Origin: Centroscyllium fabricii
Lineage: Eukaryota
Length of the DNA: 64,000 bases
NCBI GenBank assembly: GCA_051313645.2
Contig: JBNRSN020000002.1
Location: forward strand, 222,704,001-222,768,000
Reading direction: 5' to 3'
This document shows, one piece after another, positions 29,024 through 46,147 of the stretch. Numbering within the stretch: position 1 is the stretch's first letter; every line of letters begins with the position of its first letter. Under the pieces are notes generated by a model. It saw only the letters and a list, made by a program, of their open reading frames with translations. It was not told where the DNA came from and ran no database searches. Made by a program: the position numbers and the translations under genes.

Positions 29024-32000
29024 TCAAGTCCGGCGGGGTGAATGGACAGAGCAGTTCATTATTAGCTTATCCGGCGGACGCGTCTGTCTGGAGGACCGCC
29101 GGGTGTCTGTCAAATGTTCTGGTTCCTGTAGCATCGGCGGCGCTGGAGCCGGTGGTGGTGGCGGCGGCGCTGGTGCCGGTACTGTAGGTGCTGTTGGTGG
29201 CGGTGGGTCCGAGCCCTGCGGTTGCTGCTGTGCCTGCAGCTGGTCATCCGAGTCTTGGTCCTCAGCTGGCAATGGCGGGGGCTCCGAACCATACGGTAGT
29301 GGCGGCCAGCCTCCGGTGGGTTGTGGGTCGTGTATCGGCCAGTGGTCGATATGTAGTGGCTGGAGGTGGCCGAAATATAGTGGCTGGGCAGGCTGCTGCC
29401 CGACCAGGGGCTCTGCTGTGGTGCCCCCGGTGGGCGCTAGGTCCCTGTTGGAGACGGTGTCCTCGCGCCCGTCCGGGAACTGTACGTACGCATACTGTGG
29501 GTTGGCGTGCAGCAGCTGCACCTTGTCTACCAGGGGGTCGGTCTTATGGCCGCGGACGTGCTTCCTAAGCAAGACCGGCCCCGGCATTGTGAGCCACGGT
29601 GGAAGGGCTGTCCCCGAAGTCGACTTCCTGGGGAAGGAAAAGATTAAATTGTGAGGTGTGGCATTGGTGGCCGTACACAACAGAGAGCGTATCGAGTGCA
29701 GCGCATCAGGGAGGACTGCCTGCCAACGGGACACTGGAAGGCCTGTGAACTTCAGGGCCAGGGTGACCGCCTTCCAGATGATCCCGTTCTCCCTTTCTAC
29801 CTGGCCGTTCCCAAGGGGGTTGTAACTGGTCGTTCTGCTCGAGGCAACCCCTTTCTGGAGCAGAAACTGACGCAGTTCGTCGCTCATGAACGACGCCCCC
29901 CGGTCGCTATGGATGCAGCTGGGGAGACCGAAAATAGCGAACAGCGTGGTGAAGTGTTTGATCACCGTTGCGCTCGTCATATCTGGGCAGGGGAAGGCGA
30001 AGGGGAAGCGGGAGAACTCGTCTACGACCGTGAGGAAGTACGAGTTGTGGTTGGGAGGGGGCCTTTGCAGTCCACGCTTAGACGTTCAAAGGGGCGGGTG
30101 GCCTTAATGAGATGCGCCATGTCTGGCCTGAAAAATTGGGGTTTGCACTCGGCGCAAACAGGGCACTCTCGGGTCATAGCCTTGATCTCCGTGATGGAGT
30201 AGGGGAGGCTACGGGATTTTACGAAGTGGGCAAGTCTGGTGTCACCCGGGTGGCAGAGGCGATCGTGGAGTTCCTTCAGCCGGTCTACCTGGGCACTGGC
30301 GCACGTTCCCCTGGACAGTGCATCCGGGGGTTCATTGAGTTTGCCTGGTCGGTAAAGAATGTCGTACTCGTAAGTCGAGAGCTCGATCCGCCACCGCAGG
30401 ATCTTATCATTCTTGATTTTACCCTTTTGTTTATTATTAAACATAAACGCGACCGACCGTTGGTCGGTGAGTAGGGTAAAACGCTTACCGGCCAGGTAAT
30501 GACGCCAGTAGCGTACGGCCTCCACGATGGCCTGGGCCTTCTTTTCCACTGCAGAGTGGCGAAACTCGGGTCCCTGTAATGTGCGGCAGAAAAACGCTAT
30601 GGGCCTGCCTGCCTGATTCAGGGTGGCGGCAAGGGCAAAGTCCGAAGTGTCACTCTCCACCTGGAAAGGGATGGATTCATCAACGGCGTGCATGGTCGCC
30701 TTGATAATGTCTTCCTTGATCCGGGCGAATGTCGTTTGGGCTTCTACCGACAGGGGGAAGGCGGCAGCCTTAAGGAGTGGTCTGGCCTTATACGCGAACT
30801 GGGGAACCCATTGCGCGTAATAAGAGAAAAATCCCAGACATCTCTTCAGGGCTTTGGGGTTGTGAGGAAGGGGCAGTTCCTGTAAGGGGCGCATACGCTG
30901 TGTGTCGGGGCCGAGGACCCCGTTTTCCACCACGTATCCGAGGATGGCGAGCCGATCTGTACTAAAGACACATTTGTCTTTGTTGTATGTGAGATCTAGC
31001 CGTTTCGCTTTGTCGAGGAATTTGGCCAGATTGGCATCGTGGTCCTGCTGGTCATGGCCGCAGATGGTCACGTTGTCCAGGTAGAGGAAGGTGGCCTGCA
31101 GCCCGTTCTGGTCAACCATGCGGTCCATCTCCCTCTGGAATACCGACACCCCGTTGGTCACGCCGAAGGGGACCCGGAGGAAGTGGTAGAGCCGACCGTT
31201 CGCCTCGAAGGCGGTGTACGGGCGGTCGGCTTTCCGGATCGGGAGTTGGTGATACGCCGACTTAAGGTCGATTGTGGAGAACACCTTGTATTGGGCGATC
31301 TGGTTAACCATTTCCAAGATGCGGGGGAGGGGGTAGGCATCGAGCCCGGTGTAGCGGTTAATGGTCTGGCTGTAATCGATAACCATCCGATGTTTCTCGC
31401 CTGTCTTAACTGGGCCCGCCAGGGGCTGGTGCTGGCTTCAATAATTCCCTCCTTCAGCATACGCCCGACCTCCGACCTGATAAACGTCCGATCCCCTGCA
31501 CTGTACCACCGACTCTTAGTAGCAATGGGCTTGCAGTTGGGGTCGAGGTTGGCGAACAGTGAGGGGGGGTCGACTTTCAGGGTGGAGAGGCCGCAGGCCG
31601 GGCTCCGCTTTGGGAAGAGATTTTCCCGGCTACTGACGGTGAGTGGGGGCAGGGTCCCGCCGAACTCCATTGTCAAACTCTTAAGGTGGCACTGGAAATC
31701 CAGTCCCAGTAAGACTGGGGCGCACAACTGCTTGAGTGTGTATAATTTAAAATTACTGTACACGCAGCCCTTAACTGTGAGCGTGACGGAGCAGTAGCCG
31801 GTGACGTCCGCGGTGTGGGACTGTGAAGCAAGGGAGACCTGGTGGCGCGTGGGCAGGGTCTGCAGTCCGTAGCGCTGCGCTGTATCGGGGTGAATGAAGC
31901 TCTCTGTGCTTCCGGTGTCGAACAGGCAGTTAGTGGCATGGCCGTTGACTTTAATCCCCATCATGGAATTTGATAGGGTGTGCGGCCTAGCCTGATCGAC

Positions 32001-32192
32001 TTTCGGGATGGCTGAGGCCGAAGTGTGTGTGTGTGTGTGTGTGTGGGAGCCCTCCGCTGGTTGGGGCCATACACAAGATGGCGGCGCCTGTTGTTCGCAC
32101 ATGGCCGGCCTCTGGGGACAAAATGGCGGCGCCGGAGAGTTGCACATGGCTGGCCGCTGAAGACAAGATGGCGGCGCCGGGGGGTCGCACAT
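29024..32192 (-). pseudogene. pol: Frameshifted Gypsy pol (PR-RT-RH-IN)
   Basis: FDTGS, YLDN, PFGVTNG, HSDRG, GNGQVER in ORFs 31158-32192, 30022-31386, 29024-29980. Confidence 0.9.
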
Positions 32193-33167
32193 GGCTGGCC
32201 GCTGAAGACAAGATGGCGGCGCCCGTGATTCGCACGCGGCAGGCCACTGTAGACGCGATGGCGGTGCCCGTGGTTCTCACGCAGCGGGCCGTGGCGGCTG
32301 GGTTGGCGCTGCCCGTGATTCGGGTGTCGGGGGGTCCCTCGTGCAGCTGAACGCACGTTCAGTTGTTCATGTTTAGGAGAGGGCGTTGATTGGAACGGCG
32401 ATATCCAAAATAACAGGTCAAATCAGCGTTACACGCTGACTGATGTCCTGACCTACCTACTCTGCATACTGCCGATGCACGCACATCCCGCCCATACTAT
32501 CGCTCTCACCAAGATGGCGAACAGCACGTGCCACGCCAGAAGTGGGCAGAAGTGAGGTGGCGACCATTTTTTTCTCCAAACCGTCCTTAATTGCCATGCT
32601 AAGGTGTCAACTTTCATGGCCTGACTGTTCCCAAAAAACAAGGGCCCAAATCTTTGTAGATCTTTTTAGAATCTCGAAACAGTCTCTGTTGAAATGATTC
32701 AATAATGATAACCACCTACAGAGCTCCCCTCTCTTCACACCTTCAATATTGAATTGTGCCAGTGCAGCCAGTGTGCCAGTGCAGCCTGTAGGGTTCGCAA
32801 AATTTCCTGCTTTCCCAGCCCTTGTAAAGAAAACTTACAGTAAAATGGACACATTTTACAGTGGACAAAATGGAGTCTGGGATCATATGACCACAGATGA
32901 AAGCTGGTCATTTTCTCCCCAGTAACAGGGGCCAGATGCAGTCTGTTATTTCAAAATTAGATGTACTCATAGCTCCAGAAAAGAGCATTGAATATGTATG
33001 GAGGGCCAGCCAGTAGGCCGGCTGAAATAAAGGACACTTAATTGGATAATGATCAATGTTTATTTTGGGTAAAACAGGAGGGGGAGTGGGAGCGCTTCAA
33101 AACCGCTCACGGGCAGGTACGGGCCAAACCGACCTTGCACACCACCCAGCCAAACCCCCAACAGAAA

Positions 33168-33185
33168 TAGCGACCACGGCAGGAC
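33168..33185 (+). promoter_or_regulatory. Primer binding site, tRNA-Arg(UCG)-like
   Basis: tagcgaccacggcaggac 4 nt after the LTR; resembles TGGCGACCGCGGCAGGAC, the complement of a vertebrate tRNA-Arg 3' end as recalled. Confidence 0.65.
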
Positions 33186-33238
33186 ACTGGCCACAGGCCT
33201 CTGGTGTGGTAGGCAATGGCTCAGGGGAGTCAAATGTT

Positions 33239-34974
33239 ATGGAAGAGAGGATTTCAGATTATGTGTTCAGTAAGGTGAATCTGACTAAGAAGTGGATCAC
33301 CGCTCTGTTAAAGGCTGAGTGCCCGGTGGACGCAGCAGCTAAGTGGACAGGGGGGACGGAGCCGAAGAAATCTCTCAAAGACCGTGTGGCCGTGTTGTTA
33401 TAAGAAGCAGGTACAGCTTCTAGATGGGCTCTTCGCAGCCCAAGCAGCTAGGTTAAAGAAGCTAGACCTGGAGGTTCAGGAGAAAGCTCTAGTGGAGTAA
33501 AGTTATTGGTAGCGCTACAGGCCCTCAATCAGGAGAGGGAACAGTTAATAGGGGAGTATGAGGCACAGTTGGAGTACCTGCAGTGCCAAGTCACAGAAGT
33601 CAAAGGGCATGAGTTTAGGTTACGGGATAGAAGTGCCCGCCTGACCAAGGAAGTCAGGGAACACGAGGAGAAAGTAAGGGAAGTGCAGGCCGCCTACAGG
33701 GTGGCACGCGAGCAGGGGTTTGAGGATGCAGATCACAGCTCCTGTTTGGAAGAGATACAGAAACTGAGCTGTGCCCTCCAGAAGGCAAAAGACATGGTAT
33801 GTCTCCTAAGCCCAAAGGCAGGCCAGGCAGATTTCTTGGGGAACGAGGGTAGGGCCCTTCCAACAGCCTCAGTAGTGTCGAGGGACGAACCGGTAGTGAG
33901 GAAGGAATCCCTACATCCATCACCCACCACGCCAAGCTTCGGCGAATTGTGGCACCAAGGAGAGGTGGAAGTGGTGGTGGTGCGAGCCCCGGAGAGGTCG
34001 GGAGCAGGGCCCATGTGCCCGGCCTGGCAGCAGAGGCTGGGACCACCCGTTCATGGTGAACCAGAGGGACCCCTCCAAAACCAGTTCATTGTGCCCTTCA
34101 ACACTCAGCAGCTGAGGAGTATGGTTAGCCATATCCTGAAGCTATCCCAAAAGGGAGACCCCCCGGTCCACCTCAGAGAGGTAGAGCAGGCAGCCAGCGT
34201 CAACGACTGCGATGACGCCGAACAGGCAAAAATGCTGCTATTCTCTCTGGAGAGCAGCCTCCTCCAGTCCCTCTCTGATGAGAATAAAAGGGGGCAGAGC
34301 GGGTACGAGGAGCTGAAGGAAGCCGTGTTAGAAGCCCTGGGGATGGATGAGGGAAGTCCCTTCTTCTGTGGGGAGAAGACGGTCCAGCTAGCAGGGGAAA
34401 CTCCGCAGGCTTTCGTGGACCGGCTATGGCCTGTGTACTGGAGAGCTTGTCCAGGAATGACCAACTGGGCACTCCTGCGTGGGGCACCCTGGCTCACTGG
34501 CTCCATTGCTTGGTGGCGAACAGCCTGCCGCAAGTCCGAGCAAAAGCGGAGGCATGGTTCGACCCCAAGGACCCCGGCACCACCGAGGCCGGGGTGATCA
34601 GGCAGCTAACTCTGGCCTATAAAAACAGTCGGGGAGCTGAGGCGCCCCCAGCCAAAGGGAAGGTGCACGAGGCAAGGCCCGGACCGGGTAGGAAAGAGTG
34701 GCGCCAGGAAAGGACTAATTCCCCCCTCTCACAGTTGAACTGCTATGGGTGTGGGAAGGATGGCCACTGGCGAAATGAGTGCAGGAATCTGTGGAAGGAT
34801 TCAAAGGGAAAGACTCCCACAGCCCCAGCCCAGCCGGAGGGGGCCGGAGACCGGCCCACCCAGGTCGAGATGCTTTTGGATGCCATGAGGTCATTATTGT
34901 CTGGCCAAGGGAAGGTAGCAACGGCTACCGGCGCTCTACCCTGTCAGCCCCCGCCAACCCCCAGCCCTGACTAG
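33239..34974 (+). pseudogene. gag: Gag-like gene (coiled coil, capsid-like region, CCHC knuckle), frameshifted
   Basis: Heptad-rich 33506-33800; MHR-like QLAGETPQAFVDRLW; CYGCGKDGHWRNEC at ~34741-34782. Confidence 0.8.
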
Positions 34975-36569
34975 AGCAGGCACAGCCGGTTTGACGTATC
35001 GTCAATTAATAAACAAAGACGAGTAGTTCCCTAAACGACAGGCTTTTATTAATTAAGAATGGAGCTGGTCTCCTGATGAGGTCAAGGTGAAGAATGAGCG
35101 GGGGCAGGGCAGCACTCACCTATATACTCCGACCTGAGGGGAGGAGTTAGGGGTGTGGCTGACCTGGCCTGCAATACAATACAGGTGAACCAGCAACTAT
35201 TTACAGTGGTTATTACACAATTACCACATTCACACCTGCTTTAAAAACAAGTCCGGCGGGGTGAATGTGCCTTCGGGTGAAAGAAAAGATCTATATGTAC
35301 AGGTACGCATAATCAATTAGCATTTCGTTATCAGTCTCTCCGGCGGTCGCGTCTGCCTGAGGGACCGCCGGGGTGCCAGCGATGGTGGTGCTGGTTGCAG
35401 GGCCAGGGACGAGCTCGCCGCCAACGGTGCCAGCGGTGCGGCGTCCGATCCCGGGTCGACGAACGGTGGTGTTGAGGGCCCCGGTGTGTGTATATATGGG
35501 GGCCAGTATTCGGTGGGTGGTGGCTGGTCGAGCAGAGGCTCGACCGGGGGTTCTGCCCTAGTGCTCCTGGCGGGCTCCAGGTCCCTGATCGAGACCGTAT
35601 CCTCGTGCCCGTCCGGGTATGCCACGTAAGCATATTGTGGGTTGGCATGGAGCAGGTGCACCCGTTCCACCAGGGGGTCGGTCTTGTGGCCGCGGACGTG
35701 CTTCCTAAGCAACACTGGCCCCTGCGCTGTCAGCCACAGCGGGAGTGCTGTCCCCGAAGTCGACTTCCTGGGGAAGGAAAACAACAGGTCATGAGTGGCG
35801 GTACACAACAGAGAGCGGATGGCATGGAACGCGTCTGGGAGGACATCCTGCCAACGGGAGACTGGAAGGCCTCTGGACTTCAGGCCCAGGTTGACCGCCT
35901 TCCAGATGGTCCCGTTCTCCCTTTCTACCTGGCCCTTTCCCCGGGGGTTGTAACTGGTCGTTCTGCTTGAGGCAACCCATTTCTGAAGCAGGAACTGATG
36001 CAGTTTGTCGCTCATGAACGACGACCCCCGGTCCCTATGGATGTAGCTGGGGAGACCGAAAATGGCGAACAGCGTGGGGAAGTGTATGATTACCATTGCG
36101 CTCGTCATATCTGGGCAGTGGAAGGCAAAGGGGAAGCGTGAGAACTCGTCTTTGACCGTAAGGAAATACGAGTTGCGGTCAGTGGAGGGGAGGGGGCCTT
36201 TGAAGTCCACGCTCAGGTGTTCAAAGGGATGGGTGGCCTTGATGACGTGCGCCGTGTCTGGCCTGTAGAATTGGGGTTTGCACTCGGCACAGACAGGGCA
36301 CTCTTTGGTCATAGCCTTTATCTCCGTGATGGAGTAGGGGAGGCTAGGGGCTTTGACGAAGTGGGCGAGTCTGGTGACACCCGGGTGGCAGAGGCGATCA
36401 TGGAGGGCCTTCAGCCAGTCAAGCTGGGCGCTGGCGCATGTTCCCCTGGACAGTGCGTCCAGGGGTTCGTTGAGCTTGCCTGGATGGTAAAGAATGTCAT
36501 ACTCGTAAGTCGAGAGTTCGATCCACCACCGAAGGATCTTATCATTCTTGATTTTACCCCGTTATTATT

Positions 36570-38140
36570 TTTTTTAATTCATTGATGGGATATGGGCATC
36601 GCTGGCTGGCTAGGCCTGCATTTAGTGCCCATCCCTAATTGCCCTTGAGAAGATGGTGGTGAGCCACCTTCTTGAACCGCTGCAGTCCATATGGTGTAGG
36701 TACACCCACAATGTTGTTACGAAGGGAGTTCCAGGATTTTGGCCCAGCGACAGTGAAGGAGCGGCGATACAGGTCCAAGTCAGGATGGTGTGTGGCTTGG
36801 AGGGGAACTTGTAGGTGGTGCTGTTCCCATGCGTCTGCTGCCCTTGTCCTTCAAAGTGGTAGAGGTCGCGGGTTTGGAAGGTGCTGTTGAAGGAGCTTTG
36901 GCGAGTTGCTGCAGTGCATCTTGTAGATGGTACACACTGCAGCCACAGTGCACCGGTGGTGGAGGGAGTGAATGTTGAAGGTGGTGGATGGAGTGCCAAT
37001 CAGGCGGCCTGCTTTATCCTGAATAGTGTCGAGCTTCTTGAGTGTTGTTGGAGCTGCACTCATCCAGGCAAGTGGAGAGTATTCCATCACACTCCTGACT
37101 TGTGCCTTGTAGATGGTGGAAAGGCTTTGGGGAGTCAGGAGGTGAGACACTCGCCACAGAATTCCCAGCCTCTGGCTTGCTCTTGTAGCCACAGTATTTA
37201 TATGGCTGGTCCAGTTCAGTTTCCGATCAATGGTAACCCCCAGGATGTTGATAGTGGGGGATTCAGCACTGATAATGCCATTGAATGTCAAGGGGAGATG
37301 GTTGGAGTCTTGCTTGTTGGAGATGGTCATTGCCTGGCACTTGTGTGGTGCGAATGTTACTTGCCACTTGTCAGCCAAAGTCTGAATGTTGTCCAGGTCT
37401 TGCTGCATATGGACACGGACTGCGTCAGTATCTGCCGAGTTTCGAATGGTGCTGAACAGTGTGCAATCATCAGCGAACATCCCCACTTCTGACCTTGTGA
37501 TGGAGGGAAGGTCATTGATGAAACAGCTGAAGATGGTTGGGCCCAGGACACTGCCCTGAGGAACTCCTGCTGTGATGTCCTGTGGTTGAGATGAATGACC
37601 TCCAACAACCACAGCCATATTCCTTTGTGCTAGTTATGATTCCGACCAATGGAGAGTTTTCCCCTTGATTCCCATTGACTTCAGCTTTGCCAGGGCTCCT
37701 TGATGCCTGGGGCGGCACGGTGGCAAAGCAGTTAGCACTGTTGTCTCACAGCACTGGAGACCCGGGTTCAAATCCAGCCTTGGGAACTATCTGTGTGGAG
37801 TTTGCACATTCTCCCCGTGTCTGCGTGGGTTTCCTCCGGGTGCTCCGGTTTCCTCCCACAGTCCAAAGATGTGCGGGTTAGGTTCATTGGCCATGATAAA
37901 TTGACCCTTAGTGTTAGGGGGATTGAATATGTGGGGTCACGGGGATAGGGTGGGATATGTGTCGATGTAGGCTCGATAGGGATATGGGGAGAGGGCAGGG
38001 GCGGGGTACTGGGTTTGGATGATCAGCCATGATCTCATTGAATGGCGGAGCAGGCTCGAAGGGCCGAATGGCCTACTCCTGCTCCTAGTTTCTATGTTTC
38101 TATGTTTCTATGATGCCACACTCGATCAAATGCTGCCTTG
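36570..38140 (-). mobile_element. 5'-truncated CR1/L2-group LINE inserted in Gypsy RNase H
   Basis: [34 protein letters not shown]; A-rich tail at ~36570; Gypsy sequence resumes either side. Confidence 0.9.
37708..38110 (+). mobile_element. Full-length HE1-type V-SINE
   Basis: tRNA-like A/B boxes, V-domain (gtggagtttgcacattctccccgtgtctgcgtgggtttcc), CR1-derived tail; 7-bp TSD tgatgcc. Confidence 0.95.
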
Positions 38141-39786
38141 AACATAAACGCCACCGACCGTTGGTCGGTGAGCAGGGTAACACGCTTACCGGCCAGGTAA
38201 TGACGCCAGTAGCGCACTGCCTCCACGATGACCTGGGCCTCCTTTTCCACTGCTGAGTGGCGAGTTTCGGGTCCCTGTAGGGTCCGGGAGAAGAATGCTA
38301 TGGGGCTGCCTGCCTGGTTCAGGGTGGCGGCAAGGGCAAAGTCCAAAGCGTCACTCTCCACCTGGAAGGGAATGGACTCATCAACGGCGTGCATGGTCGC
38401 CTTGATGATGTCTTCCTTAATCCGGGCGAATGCCGTTTGGGCTTCTGCTGAGAGGGGGAAGACGTCGGCCTTGAGGAGAGGTCTGGCCTTATCCACGTAC
38501 TGGAGGACCTAATGCGCGTATTAAGAAAAGAACCCTAGGCATCTCCTCAGGGCTTTGGGGTTGTGAGGTAAGGGCAGCTCTTGCAAGGGGCGCATACGCT
38601 ATGGGTCGGGGCCGAGGACCCCATTTACCACCACATATCCGAGGATAGCGAGCCGATCTGTACTAAAGACACACTTGTCTTTATTGTACGTTAGGTCCAG
38701 CCGTTTCGCCGTGTGTAGGAATTTGGCGAGGTTGGCATCGTGGTCCTGCTGGTCATGGCCGCAGATGGTCACATTGTCCAAGTAGGGGAAGGTGGCCTGC
38801 AACCCGTTCTGGTCAACGATGCAGTCCATCTCCCTCTGGAACACCGACACACCATTGGTCACACCGAAGGGGACCCGGAGGAAGTGGTAGAGCTGGCCGT
38901 TCGCCTCGAAGGCGGTGTACTGGCGGTCAGATTTCCCGATAGGGGAGTTGCTGATATGCCGACTTGAGGTCGATTGTGGAAAAGACCTTGCACTGGGCGA
39001 TCTGGTTTACCATATCCGAGATGCGGGGGAGCGGGTAGGCGTCGAGCCCGGTGTAGCGGTTAATTGTCTGGCTATAGTCGATGACCATGCGCAGTTTTCC
39101 GCCCGTCTTAACCACCACGACCTGGGCCTGCCAGGGGCTGGTGCTGGCCTCAATAATCCCTTCTTTCAGCATGCGCTCGACCTCCGACCTGATGAATGCC
39201 CAGTCCCCTGCACTGTAACGCCGACTTTTGGTAGCAATGGGCTTGCATTTAGGGTCGAGATTGGCGAACAGTGAGGGGGGGTCGACTTTTAATGTGGATA
39301 GGCCGCAAGTTGAGCTCCGCGTTAAGTTGGGATTGTCCCGGCTACTGACTGTGAGGGGGGCCAGGGTTCCACCGAAATCCATCGTCACGTTCTTCAGGTG
39401 ACACTGGAAATCCAGTCCCAGTAATACTGGGGCGCACAGCTGCTGGAGTACGTACAACTTAAAGTTGTGGTAAATGCGGTCCCTGATCGTGAGCATGACG
39501 TTGCAGTAGCCGGTGATGTCCGCCGTGTGGGACTTTGAGGCAAGGGAGATTTGGTAGCGCGTGGGCTGGGTCTGCAGTGTGTAGCACCGCACTGTGTCGG
39601 GATGTATAAAGCTCTCTGTGCTGCTGGTGTCGAACAGGCAGTTAGTGGCGTGCCCGTCCACCTTTATCCCCATCATGGAGTTGGACAAGGTGTGCGGCCT
39701 AGCCTGATCGACAGTGGCTGAGGCCGAAGTGTATGTGTGTGAGTGGGGGCCCTCCGCTAGCTGGGGCCCCGGCCGGGGCGGATGGC

Positions 39787-40131
39787 AAAATGGCCGCTCA
39801 GAAGATGGCGGCGCTGGCGATTCGCATGTGTCCGGCTGCTGTGGACAAGATGGCGGTGCCCATGGTTCGCACGCGGTCGACCGCTGTGGACAAGATGGTG
39901 GCGCCCGTGATTTGCACGCGGCCGACCGCTGTGGACAAGATGGCGGCACCCGTGGTTCACACGCGGCCGACCGCTGTTGACAAGATGGCGGCGCCCGTGG
40001 TTCACACGCGGCCGACCACTGTGGATAAGATGGCGGCACCCATGGTTTGCACGCGGCCGACCGCGGTGGACAAGATGGCGGCGCCGGGGGGGTCGCACAG
40101 GGCCGGTCGCAGTCGCGTTTGAAATGGCGGC
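39787..40131. repeat. 45-bp tandem repeat inside gag-pro, each unit carrying AAGATGGCGGC
   Basis: Motif recurs every 45 bp from ~39801 to 40071; shorter array at ~32073-32265. Confidence 0.9.
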
Positions 40132-41049
40132 ACCTGTGCCGCGTATGCAGCCGGCCTCCGCCGCACAGTTAAAGGAGATTGAGGCGCCCGCGATTTACCC
40201 CCGGCTGACCGCTGCTGGGTCGCGCTGGAACACCGTACCTGGAGCCACGGAGTGGCATCGCTGTTCTCGCAGGCCGTGCTGTTGGGTCTGGAGGTGGAGG
40301 CTGGGCTGGATTTGCACACCTTCGCGTAGTGCCCATTCTTCGCGCACCGCGCACAGGTCACATTCTTCGCGGGGCACTGCGCCCGTGGGTGCTTTCCTTG
40401 GCCGCAGAAATAGCATCTGTGCCCCGCCGGTGTCTTCGCACTCGCCGCTGCCATCGTGGGGGCCTCGGCCCGTCGCCGTGTCGCCCAGGTGTCGGGTACA
40501 GTGGGAGCCGTGATCCCCGTACGCATCCATCTTTTGAAGCACTCTGTCCACCGCGTTAGAAAGCCTTATCGCGGACTCGAGCGACAGTGTCTCCTGCTCC
40601 AGCAGCCGCTGGCGGGCCTGGTTGGACCTGAGTCCGGCCACATAGGCATCACTGATTAGGAGGTTCGCCTCTTCCTCCGCTGTCCTTGCCTTGCAGTCGC
40701 AGGCCCGTGCAAGGGCTTGGAGCGCTACTAGAAATTGTTCATTTGACTCCCAGATTCGTTGTCTTCTGCTCGCCAGAGCATGCCTGGCATAGACCGAGTG
40801 GGACGGGTGCATGTAGCAGTCCTTTAATTTCTTGACCGCTTCCTTGTAAGTCTTGAGGCCGTGGATAAAGGAGTACACCCGGCTGCTGATCCGTGATGAG
40901 AGTACCTGGAGTTTGTACTCATCACTCGTAGACTTTACGGCCTTCATGTAGGCCTCAACCAGGCCAAACCAGTGTTCAAAGTCGTTAGCAGCATCGGGTG
41001 CCTGAGGATTTATATCGAGGCGATCCGGTTTCACTGCGTTGTTCTCCAT
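40002..41049 (-). pseudogene. gag: Mag-like Gag with one frameshift
   Basis: ATG at 41049; CYFCGQGKHPRAQC and CARCAKNGHYAKVC knuckles. Confidence 0.9.
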
Positions 41050-41311
41050 GTTTTAAAAATTTAGTTAATAAAATTGACGTATCGTCAATTAATACACAAA
41101 GACGAGTAGTTACCTAAACTACAGGCTTTTATTAACTAAGAATGGAGCTGGTCTCCTGATGAGGTCAAGGTGAAGAATGAGCGGGGGCAGGGCAGCACTC
41201 ACCTAAATACTCTGACCTGAGGGGAGGAGTTAGGGGTATGGCTGACCTGGCCTGCAATACAGTACAGGTGAACCAGCAACTATTTACGGTGGTTATTACA
41301 CGATTACCACA

Positions 41312-42881
41312 GTGGCCTCGGTGATCCTTAATTTAACCGAGGTGCAGTTGCCAAAGTGATGCCCCAGGGAGACAGAGAAGTTATATCAGGCCCTCTTAAA
41401 GGACATGTTCAGATGTTTCTATGAGTTTTATATCTCCAGCGGGAATCGGGATGCGCTTTACACCACACCACACAAAGTTTTGGGTGGGACAGGGAGACAA
41501 AGAAGGGGTATTTTGGGTGATGCATTCACCGCGTTTAATACTGGGACCTCTGTAGTCAATTCGTTAGATGATGTAGAGCTGCAGACCCAGATTAATGGTT
41601 TAAAAACACAGTTTAAGGGGATTCTCATGGATGAGAATAAAGCAGTGAGTTCGGCGTTGCATGAGGACCAGGCAATGACGGTCCATTTAAAGGAAATCAT
41701 AGCGGAGTTGGAGAAGCATGCCAACACGGTAAATGCTCTCATATGGGAGGACAGGAATGCATCTGACCAAGCGGCACAGAATGAGGCATGTGTGCTGTAC
41801 GGGGTATGGTTACTGGGCGAGGGCCGTAGTAATCTGGAGGACCTGAAACAGGGTTTGGTTCCCCTCCTGGATCAGTAACAAACGCCTCGCCGCCCTCCAC
41901 CTGTATGAGAATGCATTGAGCCCGTGCCAACTCGGAATAGCCTCCGAAGCTTATCCAGTTCCCGTGGACGCTGGTCGGTCAAACCACACAGTCATGGGGG
42001 TGGTGGTTAGGATGCCGGTTATGGGAAAGGCAGCCTGATCTGCACCAGTGTACAGGGTGGAGAACATTGGAGTGATCCAAGGGGGTGCGCACATTCGTTT
42101 CGCAGCGGTCCCGCCTTACGTCATCAAGTGGGAACACGAAATGACAGGCACGGACCTTTCAGGGTACCAGAGCTGGGTAGCACACGTAATCCTGTGTCCC
42201 CAGCACTTGAATGCCTTTTTAAGACTGCAGTGTGGGTTCAGAGCTGCAGGCGCGAAGCCTATAAATTGCACCATGGAGGCGATGGCAGACAGCCATGTTC
42301 CGCCGCAGGTGGCATATATACCGGATGGGACCTATTGTGTCACCACCGGCGCGTCCCAGTACCGGCACGGACAGCATAGCTGGTGCACGGTGAGTCACAG
42401 CAGCTTCTGTTCTAAACCCCAGGCTGAGGTTCAAGTGGCCCAGGAGCGAATTGTCCCCATCCCGGAGCCCTCCACTGTCCACCTCACACTGTCCACCTCA
42501 CTGTCTGAGAGAATGTAATGGATTTGTTAGTTTGTAGCCCATTTTGGCTACGAGATTCCCCCTCTCCCTGAACATGTCACAAAACTCCTTAAAGCTGTTG
42601 TTGTTTTGCAGAAACACTTCTATACCTTTGAGCAAAAGACGACAGATATAGGGTCCAAAATATTGGACATAGTAGTTCCACCATGCTGGGACCTCTTCGA
42701 TAGCATCAAAGTCCCAACATGAATCTGGCTGGCTTTTCACATCCTGGTGTTATGCCAGCTCGGCATCGTGCTGTGCTTAGTCTGTGTGCAGTGTAGGGGG
42801 AAGGGTCGGTTCTCAAAGTTCCGAGACCACGTGACCTGGCAGGGGCACTATGAGGACGTAGAAGCATATACACCCGTGTAA
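41312..42881 (+). pseudogene. env: Envelope / class I fusion glycoprotein, N-terminally truncated, with stops and frameshifts
   Basis: Furin site RQRR (41495-41506), fusion peptide GILGDAFTAFNTGTSVVNS, HR1, Cys-rich beta region (42048-42518), HR2, TM IWLAFHILVLCQLGIVLCLVCV (~42723-42788), tail ending YEDVEAYTPV*. Confidence 0.85.
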
Positions 42882-43235
42882 ACCCTCCCCATTTTGGAAC
42901 ATTTTGTATTATAGTTTTGATTGTGTGTTTGTTATTTTTAATAAAGAATTTTTGCATGGTTGTTAATAAAGATTGCAATGTGCCAAGTGATACAGGGGTG
43001 TTGGACCCCCTCCATGCTTGGATGTATGTGAATTGATTTTTCCTTTTTAAATATGCGTGTGTGCACTACGCTCTCGCGCATTTGGGGAAGTACGTGTTTC
43101 ACGGGATATATTTGAGATAGAATTAATCACAGGGGAAGGTCGACTAGGAGGGGCCAGAAATTATTCCTCACCAGAAACAACAGGAATGATACTTAATTAT
43201 CATCAGAATGGATTATTAATTATCACAGGGGGGAC

Positions 43236-44654
43236 TGTAGGATTCACAAAATGTCCTGCTTTCCCAGTCCTTGTAAAGAAAACTTACAGTAAAATGGACA
43301 CATTTTACAGTGGACAAAATGGAGTCTGGGATCACATGACCACAGCTGAAAGCTGGTCATTTTCTCCCCAGCAATAGGGGCCTGACACAGTCTGTTATTT
43401 CAAAAGTAGATGTACTCATAGCTCCAGACAAGTGCATTGAATATGTATGGAGGGCCAGCTAGCAGGCCGACAGATACAAAGAACACTTAATTGGATAACG
43501 ATCAATGTTTATTTTGGGCAAAACATCAAAACAAGCCACTTCTATTCAACCACAGAAGTTCAGTGTTCAGGTACAAATTACACAAAGGGAGGCCGTAGAT
43601 AAGGCCATCAGAAGGAAATCGACAGTTTTACAGTCGTTTTACATTAAGTACCAGCTTTTGTTACACAGTAAGCCCGCCAAATTAAATAAAGACTAACCTG
43701 ATTTGGCGCAAGATAAGGCACTGTTCAAATTAGTATAACAGTAATGACAAGGAATGAAGCCAAACAGCAGAAACAGCAAGGACACAGGCCGAGATGCAGG
43801 CAGGCAACCATGAAGGCCAGTGCTCCGGTCCATGTGCAGACATGACCCCCGGTCCGTACTGGAAGTCTGCTCTTTTCCCTGGCCATTGCCCGTACCATAC
43901 CACAAGGCCGGGACCGAACTGGGGCCAGGTACCAAGTGGGACAGTGAGACACCTCAGTACGGACTGGAGCAAGACTAGGCCTTGCCCAGAAAATAGTGTC
44001 GGACATGACATTTTTAAAGTTAAAGAGCCGGTGACTGGGGTGGGGTTCGAATAAACGGGCCCCCAGCATTCATTCGCCAGAAGAAGTTCCATTCAGCTCG
44101 GAAGGAGGACAAGAAATTCCATTGTTTCAGTAGTCGTGAGACCATGAGGCGCCAGCCCTGAAGGATGAGAAGTTTGTGTGACACGTACGCGCTGCAGCCC
44201 TGTTGACCACGTGAGAACGGAACGCCTGAAAGACCAGAGCCAAAACTCAAAACCTTGTTTTCATTAATCCTAGGCTGGTGAGCATGAAATCTGACCCTTG
44301 GTAGTTGAACTAGGTTAGGTATAGGTACAGCGGGGTGGGAATTAAGGTTGAGGGATAGCTAAAATTGTCATTCATATCCCTCGATGTGTCATGTGCTTCT
44401 CAAACCTGTACCAATGTATAGCGATTGAATTGTTTTTACCTGTAGTGTGCTATCAATAATTTTCTTCTCATTAAAACCTTTAAGTTTGTTTGACTCACTC
44501 AAGTCGTTTGTCTACCCGTGCTTTTGCACCACCAGTGGTCTGACAATAAGCCCAGTGTCCAGAATCAGGAGAGGGAGTGGGAGCGCTTCAAAACCGCTCA
44601 CGGGCAGGTACGGGCCAAACCGACCTCGCACACCACCCAGCCAAACCCCCTACA
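43236..44654 (+). repeat. Complete 3' LTR (1419 bp) of the env-bearing element
   Basis: First ~290 bp and last ~88 bp match 32787-33163. Confidence 0.9.
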
Positions 44655-46147
44655 AGCCTTCGGTCGCCTGAGGAAGAGAGTGCTTGAAGACCAGGACCTC
44701 AAACCCGGCACTAGGCTCATGGTCTACAGAGCAGCAGTGATATCCGCCCTGCTGCATGCCTCAGAGACATGGACCATGTACAGCAGGCACCTCAAAGCAC
44801 TGGATAGGTACCACCAACACTGCCTCCGCAAGATCCTGCAAATACATTGGCAGAATATGCGCACCAATGTCAGTGTTCTTGCTCAGGCCAACATCCCCAG
44901 CATCGACGCTTTGACCACATCCAGTCAGCTCCGATAGACGGGTCACACTGTCCACATATCTGATACGAGACTCCCAAAACAAGCGCTCTACTCGGAGCTC
45001 CGGCACGGCAAGGGAGCCCCAGGTGGGCAGAGGAAACTCTTCAAGGACACCCTCAAAGCCTCCTTGAAAAATTGTAACATCCCCATCGACACCTGGGAAT
45101 CCCTGGCCCAAGACCACACAAAGTGGAGGAGAAGCATCCGGGAAGGCGCTGAACACCTCGAATCTCTTCGCTGGGAGCAAGCAGAAGCCAATCAACCCAA
45201 GCATCAAACCCAACCACCCCTTCAACCACTGTCTGCCCCACCTGTGACAAAGACTATAGTTCCCGCATTGGACTCATCAGTCACCTGCGAACTCATTTTT
45301 AATGTGGAAGCAAGTCATCCTCGGTTCCGAGGGACTGCCTAAGAAGAAGAAGAAGAATATTGAATTAGGTAGTCAAGACACAAAAATCTAAGCTCTGAAG
45401 TTAGTCTTTGGGACTTCCAAAAACACATTTCAACACCAAAAGAACTTAATATCAAGCACATACTAATGAGCATTCTGGTACACGTTGTTGGAGTCCCACA
45501 CCTTATAAGGCCTAAAATAATGCATACTGGAATTTTGAATAGAGCGAAACATCCTTGGTGGTGCAGCCATTAGTGATAATTGGTCTGAAAACTTACAATT
45601 CGGTTCTACTACTATAACAATGGTGAAACAGGACTTCAGATGCATCAGAGATTTATGTGCCTGATCCTACTGGAATTCATGGGAGCAGGCAATTAGCATA
45701 TTATTGGCAGGTTCCCACATCAGTATCGGTGCAGCTGGGGGAATCCACTAGGTGCGGGGGCAGGAATATTGAAGTGGCAAAACCAAGCGCTCAGAGCCAA
45801 CCAATCAGTCCTACCTCCATTCCTGACATCAGGATCCAAGGGATGGATGCCTAAACCACGCATCCACATGTAAAACCTCCTTGCAACAGGAAAAGGGATG
45901 GAGACCTGGTGTAACCGGGTCCTACCCCCAGTAGACGTCCCCGTCCACTCCGATAACCCCACCTGTTCATCCATATTATTGTGGAGGTTTGAGCCGAATA
46001 TTTTTGTCTTCTTTCCCTCACAGTCTACATGCAGACATTAATATTTCAAAAACATGATTATTTCTGATGCAATTAACTTATGACTAAAGGTAATGGCATC
46101 ATTCTGAGGAACTGGCTAGGCTAGATGCGCACCCACACCCCCCAATC

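Follow-up and report, generated by a model that had tools for sequence, protein, structure and literature searches.

A pol-deleted provirus in Centroscyllium fabricii from a basal retrovirus family with a predicted paramyxo/pneumovirus-F-like envelope

The window analysed here is a 64,000-nucleotide stretch of the Centroscyllium fabricii genome (GenBank assembly GCA_051313645.2, contig JBNRSN020000002.1, forward-strand positions 222,704,001 to 222,768,000), which harbors an element bounded by long terminal repeats (LTRs) at window positions 32787 to 44654. This element is very probably a dead provirus from which pol has been deleted, and it belongs to a high-copy endogenous retrovirus (ERV) family combining a basal Retroviridae Pol, of a type common to frogs and the coelacanth, with an envelope protein (Env) predicted to adopt the fold of the paramyxovirus and pneumovirus fusion protein (F). 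A reading made from the sequence alone (the sequence-only reading) had proposed a decayed provirus with such an Env and had made this proposal depend on a profile or structural match to viral fusion or capsid proteins; both Foldseek and VIA found a structural match to fusion proteins.

Predicted fold and distribution of the envelope protein

The window retains the 3' two-thirds of env with six stops and one frameshift relative to a sister frame, and the fold was modelled on the natural frame of a sister copy from the same genome. The alignment used for modelling comprised three natural frames, 31 of the 39 homologs found by an Env profile search (eight chimeric or short rows were omitted) and three further proteins, and it gave a model with a predicted local distance difference test (pLDDT) score of 70.5; an earlier AlphaFold2 model built on five sequences had a pLDDT of 29.7 and was unusable. 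When this model was searched against the PDB using Foldseek, every row listed was a paramyxovirus or pneumovirus F, with a best E-value of 6e-11. Using VIA, the model could be superimposed on human parainfluenza virus 3 (hPIV3) F with a Z-score of 13.6 and a root mean square deviation (rmsd) of 13.6 over 347 aligned residues, and on the post-fusion F of Nipah virus with a Z-score of 12.6 and an rmsd of 4.8 over 294. When the VIA search was widened, 14 F chains and two foamy virus Env chains, the latter at Z 7.8-8.2, filled the first 16 rows (Z 6.3-12.4), followed by coiled coils at about 5. Foldseek searches against predicted viral structures placed lispi-, baculo- and filovirus glycoproteins, together with the Envs of walleye epidermal hyperplasia virus 1 (WEHV-1) and walleye dermal sarcoma virus (WDSV), among the neighbours. 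A paramyxo/pneumovirus-F-like fold of the modelled Env is well supported.

An immunosuppressive domain (ISD) and a CX6CC motif, which mark gamma-type Envs, are absent from the sister-copy env frames scanned (0/3), as the sequence-only reading had noted for the window. The sister frames bear an RQRR site, at which Env is likely cut by furin, and cell entry would likely proceed by class I fusion. The nearest named Env homologs, at 64-71% identity, come from a sawshark and a skate, in keeping with the earlier suggestion of a probable cartilaginous-fish host. The hosts of 19 of the 20 homologs examined are sawshark, bamboo shark, smooth-hound, catshark, horn shark, Xenopus tropicalis, X. laevis, Pelodytes and the coelacanth; judged by these matches, Envs of the family occur in sharks, a skate, frogs and the coelacanth.

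The N-terminal domain may be immunoglobulin (Ig)-like, as sub-threshold Pfam matches in four related frames suggest (best E 0.0027), and could serve as an attachment module. ESM Atlas scores for this region do not exceed 0.80 and give a lead only, while its profile matched just 30 columns of the Env of snakehead retrovirus (SnRV). One frog Pol record terminates in an Ig-like env start, and that Pol group is therefore tied to the F-like Env type. Two homologs, P0083 (bamboo shark, 739 aa) and P0092 (frog, 723 aa), are full-length env-like proteins on long contigs and may represent young copies or co-opted genes. Three further records, P0004, P0082 and P0100, are annotated host gene models (Niban1-like, cadherin-related and fbxo15) that incorporate pieces of the env family, through either exonisation or mis-annotation.

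Sister copies and the plan of the complete element

Searches of the 7.2-Gb genome gave 3,713 first-look candidates with env and 2,946 with the LTR; the 40 matches scored in each search were 86-91% identical to the query, except for the element itself and one short piece. The sister-copy set consists of 10 kb around each of the 20 best non-self env matches. Pol-containing copies, which the sequence-only reading had advised seeking, were found in this way in the same genome, around env matches. All 20 sister copies carry sequence immediately upstream of the env piece that is missing from the window. In one of them, 5,315 nt separate the gag-side and env-side junctions, and this segment codes for protease (PR), reverse transcriptase (RT, with YVDD), tether, RNase H, integrase (IN) and an acidic tail, followed by the 5' third of env, which opens with a signal-peptide-like start. 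Pfam identified RVT_1 (E 8e-36) and rve (E 6e-13) in sister frames, along with RT_RNaseH and RNase_H within one frame, the latter pair corresponding to a tether and a second RNase H as in Retroviridae. Over the 7.9 kb examined, and counting a domain as kept when at least half of it is present, RT is retained in 8/20 copies, IN in 9/20 and some pol domain in 13/20 (PR scored 0 solely through the 60% identity filter). Gag and env are not adjacent in the sister copies; pol lies between them, and is colinear with them in many. The absence of pol is therefore a lesion of the window copy, and the earlier expectation that the family would be missed by RT-based screens does not hold, since such screens would see it through the sister copies.

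Whole copies read LTR, tRNA-Arg primer-binding site (PBS), gag, in-frame TGA, pol, env of about 780 codons, polypurine tract (PPT) and LTR, over about 12 kb. With pol taken from the sister copies, the LTRs, PBS, PPT, gag-pol-env order and short target-site duplication (TSD) are those of Retroviridae. The features of the window, including long and short interspersed nuclear element (LINE and SINE)-like sequences, are as follows.

32783..32786, no strand: left TSD, AGCC; the same AGCC borders the 3' LTR
32787..33163, + strand: 5' LTR, 377 nt; two blocks, one corresponding to the beginning of the 3' LTR and one to its end
33168..33185, + strand: PBS for tRNA-Arg(TCG); 16/18 bases complementary to the 3' end of host tRNA-Arg(TCG)
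33240..34974 (start approximate), + strand: gag, broken; coiled coil, capsid-like region and one CCHC near 34741, from Pfam and cluster likeness
34968..34974, + strand: TGA-CTAG at the gag-pol junction; gag and pol both in frame in two sister copies
34992..41311, - strand: nested insert of Ty3/Gypsy type with no relation to the provirus; LTRs, protease, RT and integrase of its own
36560..38137, - strand: LINE RT fragment and SINE-like repeat inside the nested Gypsy; a gap relative to a sibling Gypsy
41312..42881, + strand: env, 3' two-thirds, broken; predicted F-like ectodomain, RQRR site, heptads and transmembrane segment (TM)
43227..43234, + strand: PPT, a purine run directly ahead of the 3' LTR
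43236..44654, + strand: 3' LTR, 1,419 nt, from LTR comparison and family search
44655..44658, no strand: right TSD, AGCC; the provirus sits in LINE-like sequence

The order LTR-PBS-gag-env-PPT-LTR with an AGCC duplication, as first described from the sequence, was confirmed by LTR comparison, tRNA match and Pfam. The LTRs end in TG..CA, and AGCC borders the provirus on the left and right. The 5' LTR is 92% identical to the 3' LTR over its first 291 nt and 96% over its last 92 nt, and is just 377 nt long, as its interior lacks about 1,040 nt. The tRNA-Arg-like PBS of the sequence-only reading is borne out by the host tRNA-Arg(TCG) called by ARAGORN, to which the PBSs of four sister copies are complementary at 15-17 of 18 bases; reverse transcription would be primed by tRNA-Arg. 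Most sister copies also have a G-run like the PPT of the provirus ahead of their 3' LTR. The gag CCHC matches Pfam zf-CCHC with an E-value of 0.0024, under the curated cut-off, and the clusters closest to the capsid region, as examined in one of the sister copies, are those of Retrotrans_gag (score 0.94). A reading frame suggests that the sequence around the insertion is LINE-like, with no Pfam match found there.

The CCHC frame runs into TGA-CTAG and onward into pol in two sister copies, and the motif occurs in 6/20 sister stretches, many of which end before the junction. UGA-CUAG is a read-through context. The TGA is likely a read-through stop, by means of which Gag-Pol is likely made. Among ten LTRs with host flanks on both sides, five show an exact 4-nt duplication, three a duplication with one mismatch, and two (an identical pair) none; the flanks of four paired LTR copies match in two, differ in one and lack one end in one.

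Some further features of the copies are as follows. IN is trailed by a tail of about 200 aa, acidic and Ser-rich and then basic, that has no Pfam match (L013-L031, 3' end of pol). One locus (L028:594-3002) has a tandem-like arrangement of an LTR fragment, a 3' env piece, a full LTR and then gag, all within one target duplication. In two loci 9 kb apart (L064 and L065, on G000:C2) the LTR flanks are identical across 1,874 nt, reflecting either recent duplication or an assembly artefact. Arrays of the 3'-end motif of tRNA-Arg(TCG) are present at G000:C811:22.7-24.7 Mb (with a spacing of about 1.9 kb on C811) and at C922:4.0-7.9 Mb.

Placement of the reverse transcriptase

The RT of the family is 79-81% identical to that of one relative and 47-51% identical to those of frog and coelacanth Pols, followed by SnRV (44.7%, 214 bits), a lokiretrovirus proxy (37.5%, 185 bits), gammaretroviruses (34-36%), epsilonretroviruses (32-36%) and foamy virus (32.7%). 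The proxy is one database Pol carrying the motifs of lokiretrovirus consensus Pols. A scan of viral contigs provided a 10,688-nt genome taken as SnRV (locus L037; its RT text agrees) together with epsilonretrovirus and foamy virus records; a foamy-RT scan of viral contigs returned only itself, and a third homolog search, with the RT-RNase H frame, returned five matches only. Trees were built on 47 RT rows (33 of 72 database matches, one from the third homolog search, ten viral loci and three element frames), on a 23-row RT subset and on 20 rows of RT plus tether. In the three trees, the element falls within Retroviridae and the loki proxy outside, with support of 100/98, 99/97 and 100/98, respectively; in the latter two, Gypsy rows are split from the element at 100/100. 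SnRV groups with the gamma-epsilon side on RT plus tether (98/99). Manual counts over 132 columns gave RT identities of about 58% with lineage I of the elephant shark ERVs (CmiERV), 52% with SnRV, 40% with prototype foamy virus (PFV) and 34% with Loki-Aro.

The sequence comparisons place the RT of the family inside Retroviridae and close to its base. A fair label is that of a basal retrovirus of SnRV-like/Huo grade: on these comparisons it is not a lokiretrovirus and is not shown to be foamy, though it may overlap with the foamy-like ERVs (FLERVs) CmiFLERV and XtrFLERV, which are known from pol, or with the cartilaginous-fish endogenous foamy virus (CFEFV). Assignments first to lokiretroviruses and then to FLERVs were dropped on RT comparisons.

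Relationship to known retroviruses

Among named viruses, SnRV has the highest RT identity to the family, and it likewise has an in-frame gag-pol stop, a coiled-coil Gag with one CCHC and a homologous Env module. The PBSs share 13/18 bases, that of SnRV being presumably also for tRNA-Arg. SnRV differs in having TAG rather than TGA and an LTR of 518 nt, and also in its 3' accessory ORFs and its long Env tail, both of which the family appears to lack; there is no Gag sequence match, and a strict clade of the two is rejected on sparsely sampled RT plus tether. The walleye epsilonretroviruses (WDSV, WEHV) resemble the family in their in-frame gag-pol stop, in an Env that aligns to the Env profile and in predicted Env structures that are its Foldseek neighbours, but their RT is 32-36% identical and falls in a separate clade, and their Env is far longer. 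Using hhalign, the Env profile could be aligned to the Env of SnRV (L037:6131-9535) with an E-value of 6e-6 and to that of WDSV (L041:5962-9648) with an E-value of 4e-9, as against 0.083 (no match) for foamy Env; HMMER gave 10.5, 9.7 and 4.7 bits, respectively, where the maximum of 300 shuffles was 4.9. These scores point weakly, yet above shuffles, to homology with the SnRV and WDSV Envs, and F-like Envs may extend into SnRV and the epsilonretroviruses.

Han 2015 (PMC4422223) describes CmiERV lineage I, which shares with the family, by eye, about 77/132 RT residues, a coiled-coil Gag, one CCHC, an in-frame gag-pol TGA and a cartilaginous host; it is unlike the family in its gamma-type env with ISD and CX6CC (by eye), another PBS, a shorter LTR and a length of 9.6 kb. 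Han 2015 places CmiERV-I with SnRV; it is 'SnRV-like' and belongs to clade Huo of PMC6001957. CmiERV scaffold 2, in the PMC4422223 supplement, has by eye the same Pol type but carries an env of gamma type, which implies that env was exchanged inside a single Pol group.

Nested Gypsy insertion and loss of pol in the window copy

The window copy retains no pol domain of its own. The nested Gypsy element stands in for about 5.3 kb of the provirus, that is, pol and the 5' part of env. Its LTRs (237 nt) are 96% identical to each other, and their divergence of 0.044 makes it younger than the provirus (0.073). No target duplication is found at its borders, where the flanks are GGTT and GTGG. It contains a LINE RT fragment (RVT_1, E 1e-15) and, at 37710-38110, a repeat that is probably SINE-like. 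Pol and 5' env were most likely lost either when two Gypsy insertions recombined or through a deletion as the Gypsy inserted. A partial second copy of the same Gypsy family lies at window positions 29380-32285 on the minus strand, 83-85% identical, a short way upstream of the provirus.

Age, selection and mode of spread

The Kimura two-parameter (K2P) distance between paired LTRs is 0.073 in the window (377 sites) and 0.062-0.091 in four sister copies, one of whose pairs covers only 202 sites. At the substitution rate of 0.5e-9 assumed in PMC10699275, these values correspond to about 60-90 million years (Myr), and at the 2.2e-10 assumed in PMC4422223 to 140-205 Myr. The ratio of non-synonymous to synonymous differences (pN/pS) between copies is 0.25-0.33 in the F part of env (0.19-0.29 once CpG codons are excluded) and 0.39-0.43 in its N-terminal part, compared to 0.27-0.29 in RT, 0.25-0.39 in IN and 0.35-0.37 in gag. 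Env is under purifying selection about as strong as RT, and therefore germ-line reinfection, some 60-200 Myr ago, is the likely route of spread.

Alternative explanations

Several results weigh against the interpretation of the element as a provirus of a basal retrovirus family with an F-like Env. Env is undetected by Pfam Fusion_gly (PF00523) and by a sequence-profile search of the PDB, the predicted template modelling (pTM) score of the model is 0.51 and the rmsd values are large. Its N-terminal profile has no match in the PDB, and the Ig-like call comes from sub-threshold Pfam matches. The element's own Env frames returned nothing at E <= 1 in tblastn against SnRV and WDSV, and its Gag has no match in SnRV Gag. 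The pN/pS pairs are non-independent, with one common reference picked for its open frame. In the trees, a relative of 81% RT identity stands in for the element on RT plus tether, lokiretroviruses are represented by the single motif-identified proxy and foamy viruses by a single row, and there are no rows for ERV-L, alpha/beta/lenti, FLERV or Odin. On RT alone, the approximately unbiased (AU) test does not reject a grouping of the element with the loki proxy (p 0.06). On RT plus tether, where sampling is sparse, the test rejects a clade of the element group with SnRV (p-AU 0.011); the best tree joins the element group to the long-branch foamy row at 34/0, without support.

That last tree, a best PDB RT match to foamy RT (E 3e-48, the PDB matches including neither an SnRV nor a loki RT), the 4-nt TSD, the long LTR and the F fold of foamy Env are what a basal foamy-like ERV would also show, whether of the shark and frog CmiFLERV-XtrFLERV group (pol only), which fits the hosts, or of the CFEFV kind reportedly described by Wang, Chen and Cui in 2023. 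We consider this unlikely, given that no Gag_spuma or Foamy_ENV Pfam match is found where the foamy control is strong, that the Gag of the family has a CCHC in frame with pol, that the PBS is for Arg, that the Env profile finds no match in foamy Env and that the RT identity to foamy virus is among the lowest. Foamy viruses and FLERVs (PMC11468914, PMC5512871) share with the family the F-fold Env, YVDD, long LTR and basal position; they differ in their spuma Gag and Env Pfam domains.

Still less probable is a lokiretrovirus, which would widen that group to cartilaginous fish and which the sequence-only reading had proposed as one option with its term 'loki-like'. Lokiretroviruses (Wang and Han 2021, PMC7947760) have an F-like Env, tether and RNase H, and gag-pol-env between LTRs, and the dual RNase H, the coiled-coil Gag and an Env with RxxR, fusion peptide, heptads and TM agree with such an origin; in the loki Env text of the supplement the motifs follow, by eye, a similar order, and the RT-only AU test leaves the grouping standing. 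On RT plus tether, in contrast, it is rejected (p-AU 0.0003), and the RT motif of the family is LPQGFHNSP instead of the PFGYxNSPAEF of a loki RT. Lokiretroviruses are further marked by an IN near CGIN1; 'NYNRIN-like' names in databases are automatic labels. The Pol of the family lacks the long PR-RT insertion, the closest whole Pol having 320 aa from PR to YxDD vs 712 in a loki-type Pol; this insertion is seen in the consensus Pols in the available part of PMC7947760, where it is no stated loki criterion. The same part places lokiretroviruses as sister to Retroviridae, and its table has three chondrichthyan genomes with no lokiretrovirus reported from them. It is very improbable that the provirus is a Ty3/Gypsy element akin to errantiviruses, or a non-autonomous element of gag and env that lacks pol: the window copy does hold Gypsy pol and lacks its own, and invertebrate errantiviruses commonly have an F-type Env, but the Gypsy is a distinct minus-strand insert with its own LTRs, the sister copies bear a retroviral pol with tether and RNase H between gag and env, and the trees keep the RT apart from Metaviridae.

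Implications for the evolution of retroviral envelopes

F-like Envs and SnRV-like shark ERVs are known already; what is new is their pairing, together with the weak link to the SnRV and walleye Envs. In the literature searched, which excluded subscription journals and Repbase/Dfam, we found no shark ERV with an F-like Env, nor the SnRV or walleye Env called F-like. The 'undescribed enveloped lineage' of the sequence-only reading holds in that this pairing of Pol with F-like Env was not found in the literature, and does not hold for the Pol type, which looks known. Screens of fish Envs with gamma- and beta-type queries would have overlooked the family.

Wang and Han (PMC7947760) leave four scenarios open, with the F-like Env either ancestral to retroviruses or acquired by lokiretroviruses. 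A third group with F-like Envs, inside Retroviridae and ranging from sharks to frogs, together with the weak SnRV and walleye links, favours an ancestral F-like Env. Foamy Env was shown to be F-like later than that study. Tentatively, and with slightly less than even confidence, we suggest that an unnamed early-branching lineage of sharks, rays, frogs and the coelacanth with an Ig-plus-F Env, taken with the loki, foamy, SnRV and walleye Envs, shows the F fold to be ancestral, the gamma-type Env having been swapped in later, even within the same Pol group (CmiERV-I). The high copy number of the family lets selection and age be measured, and an ancestral F-like Env becomes testable with structure-based trees.

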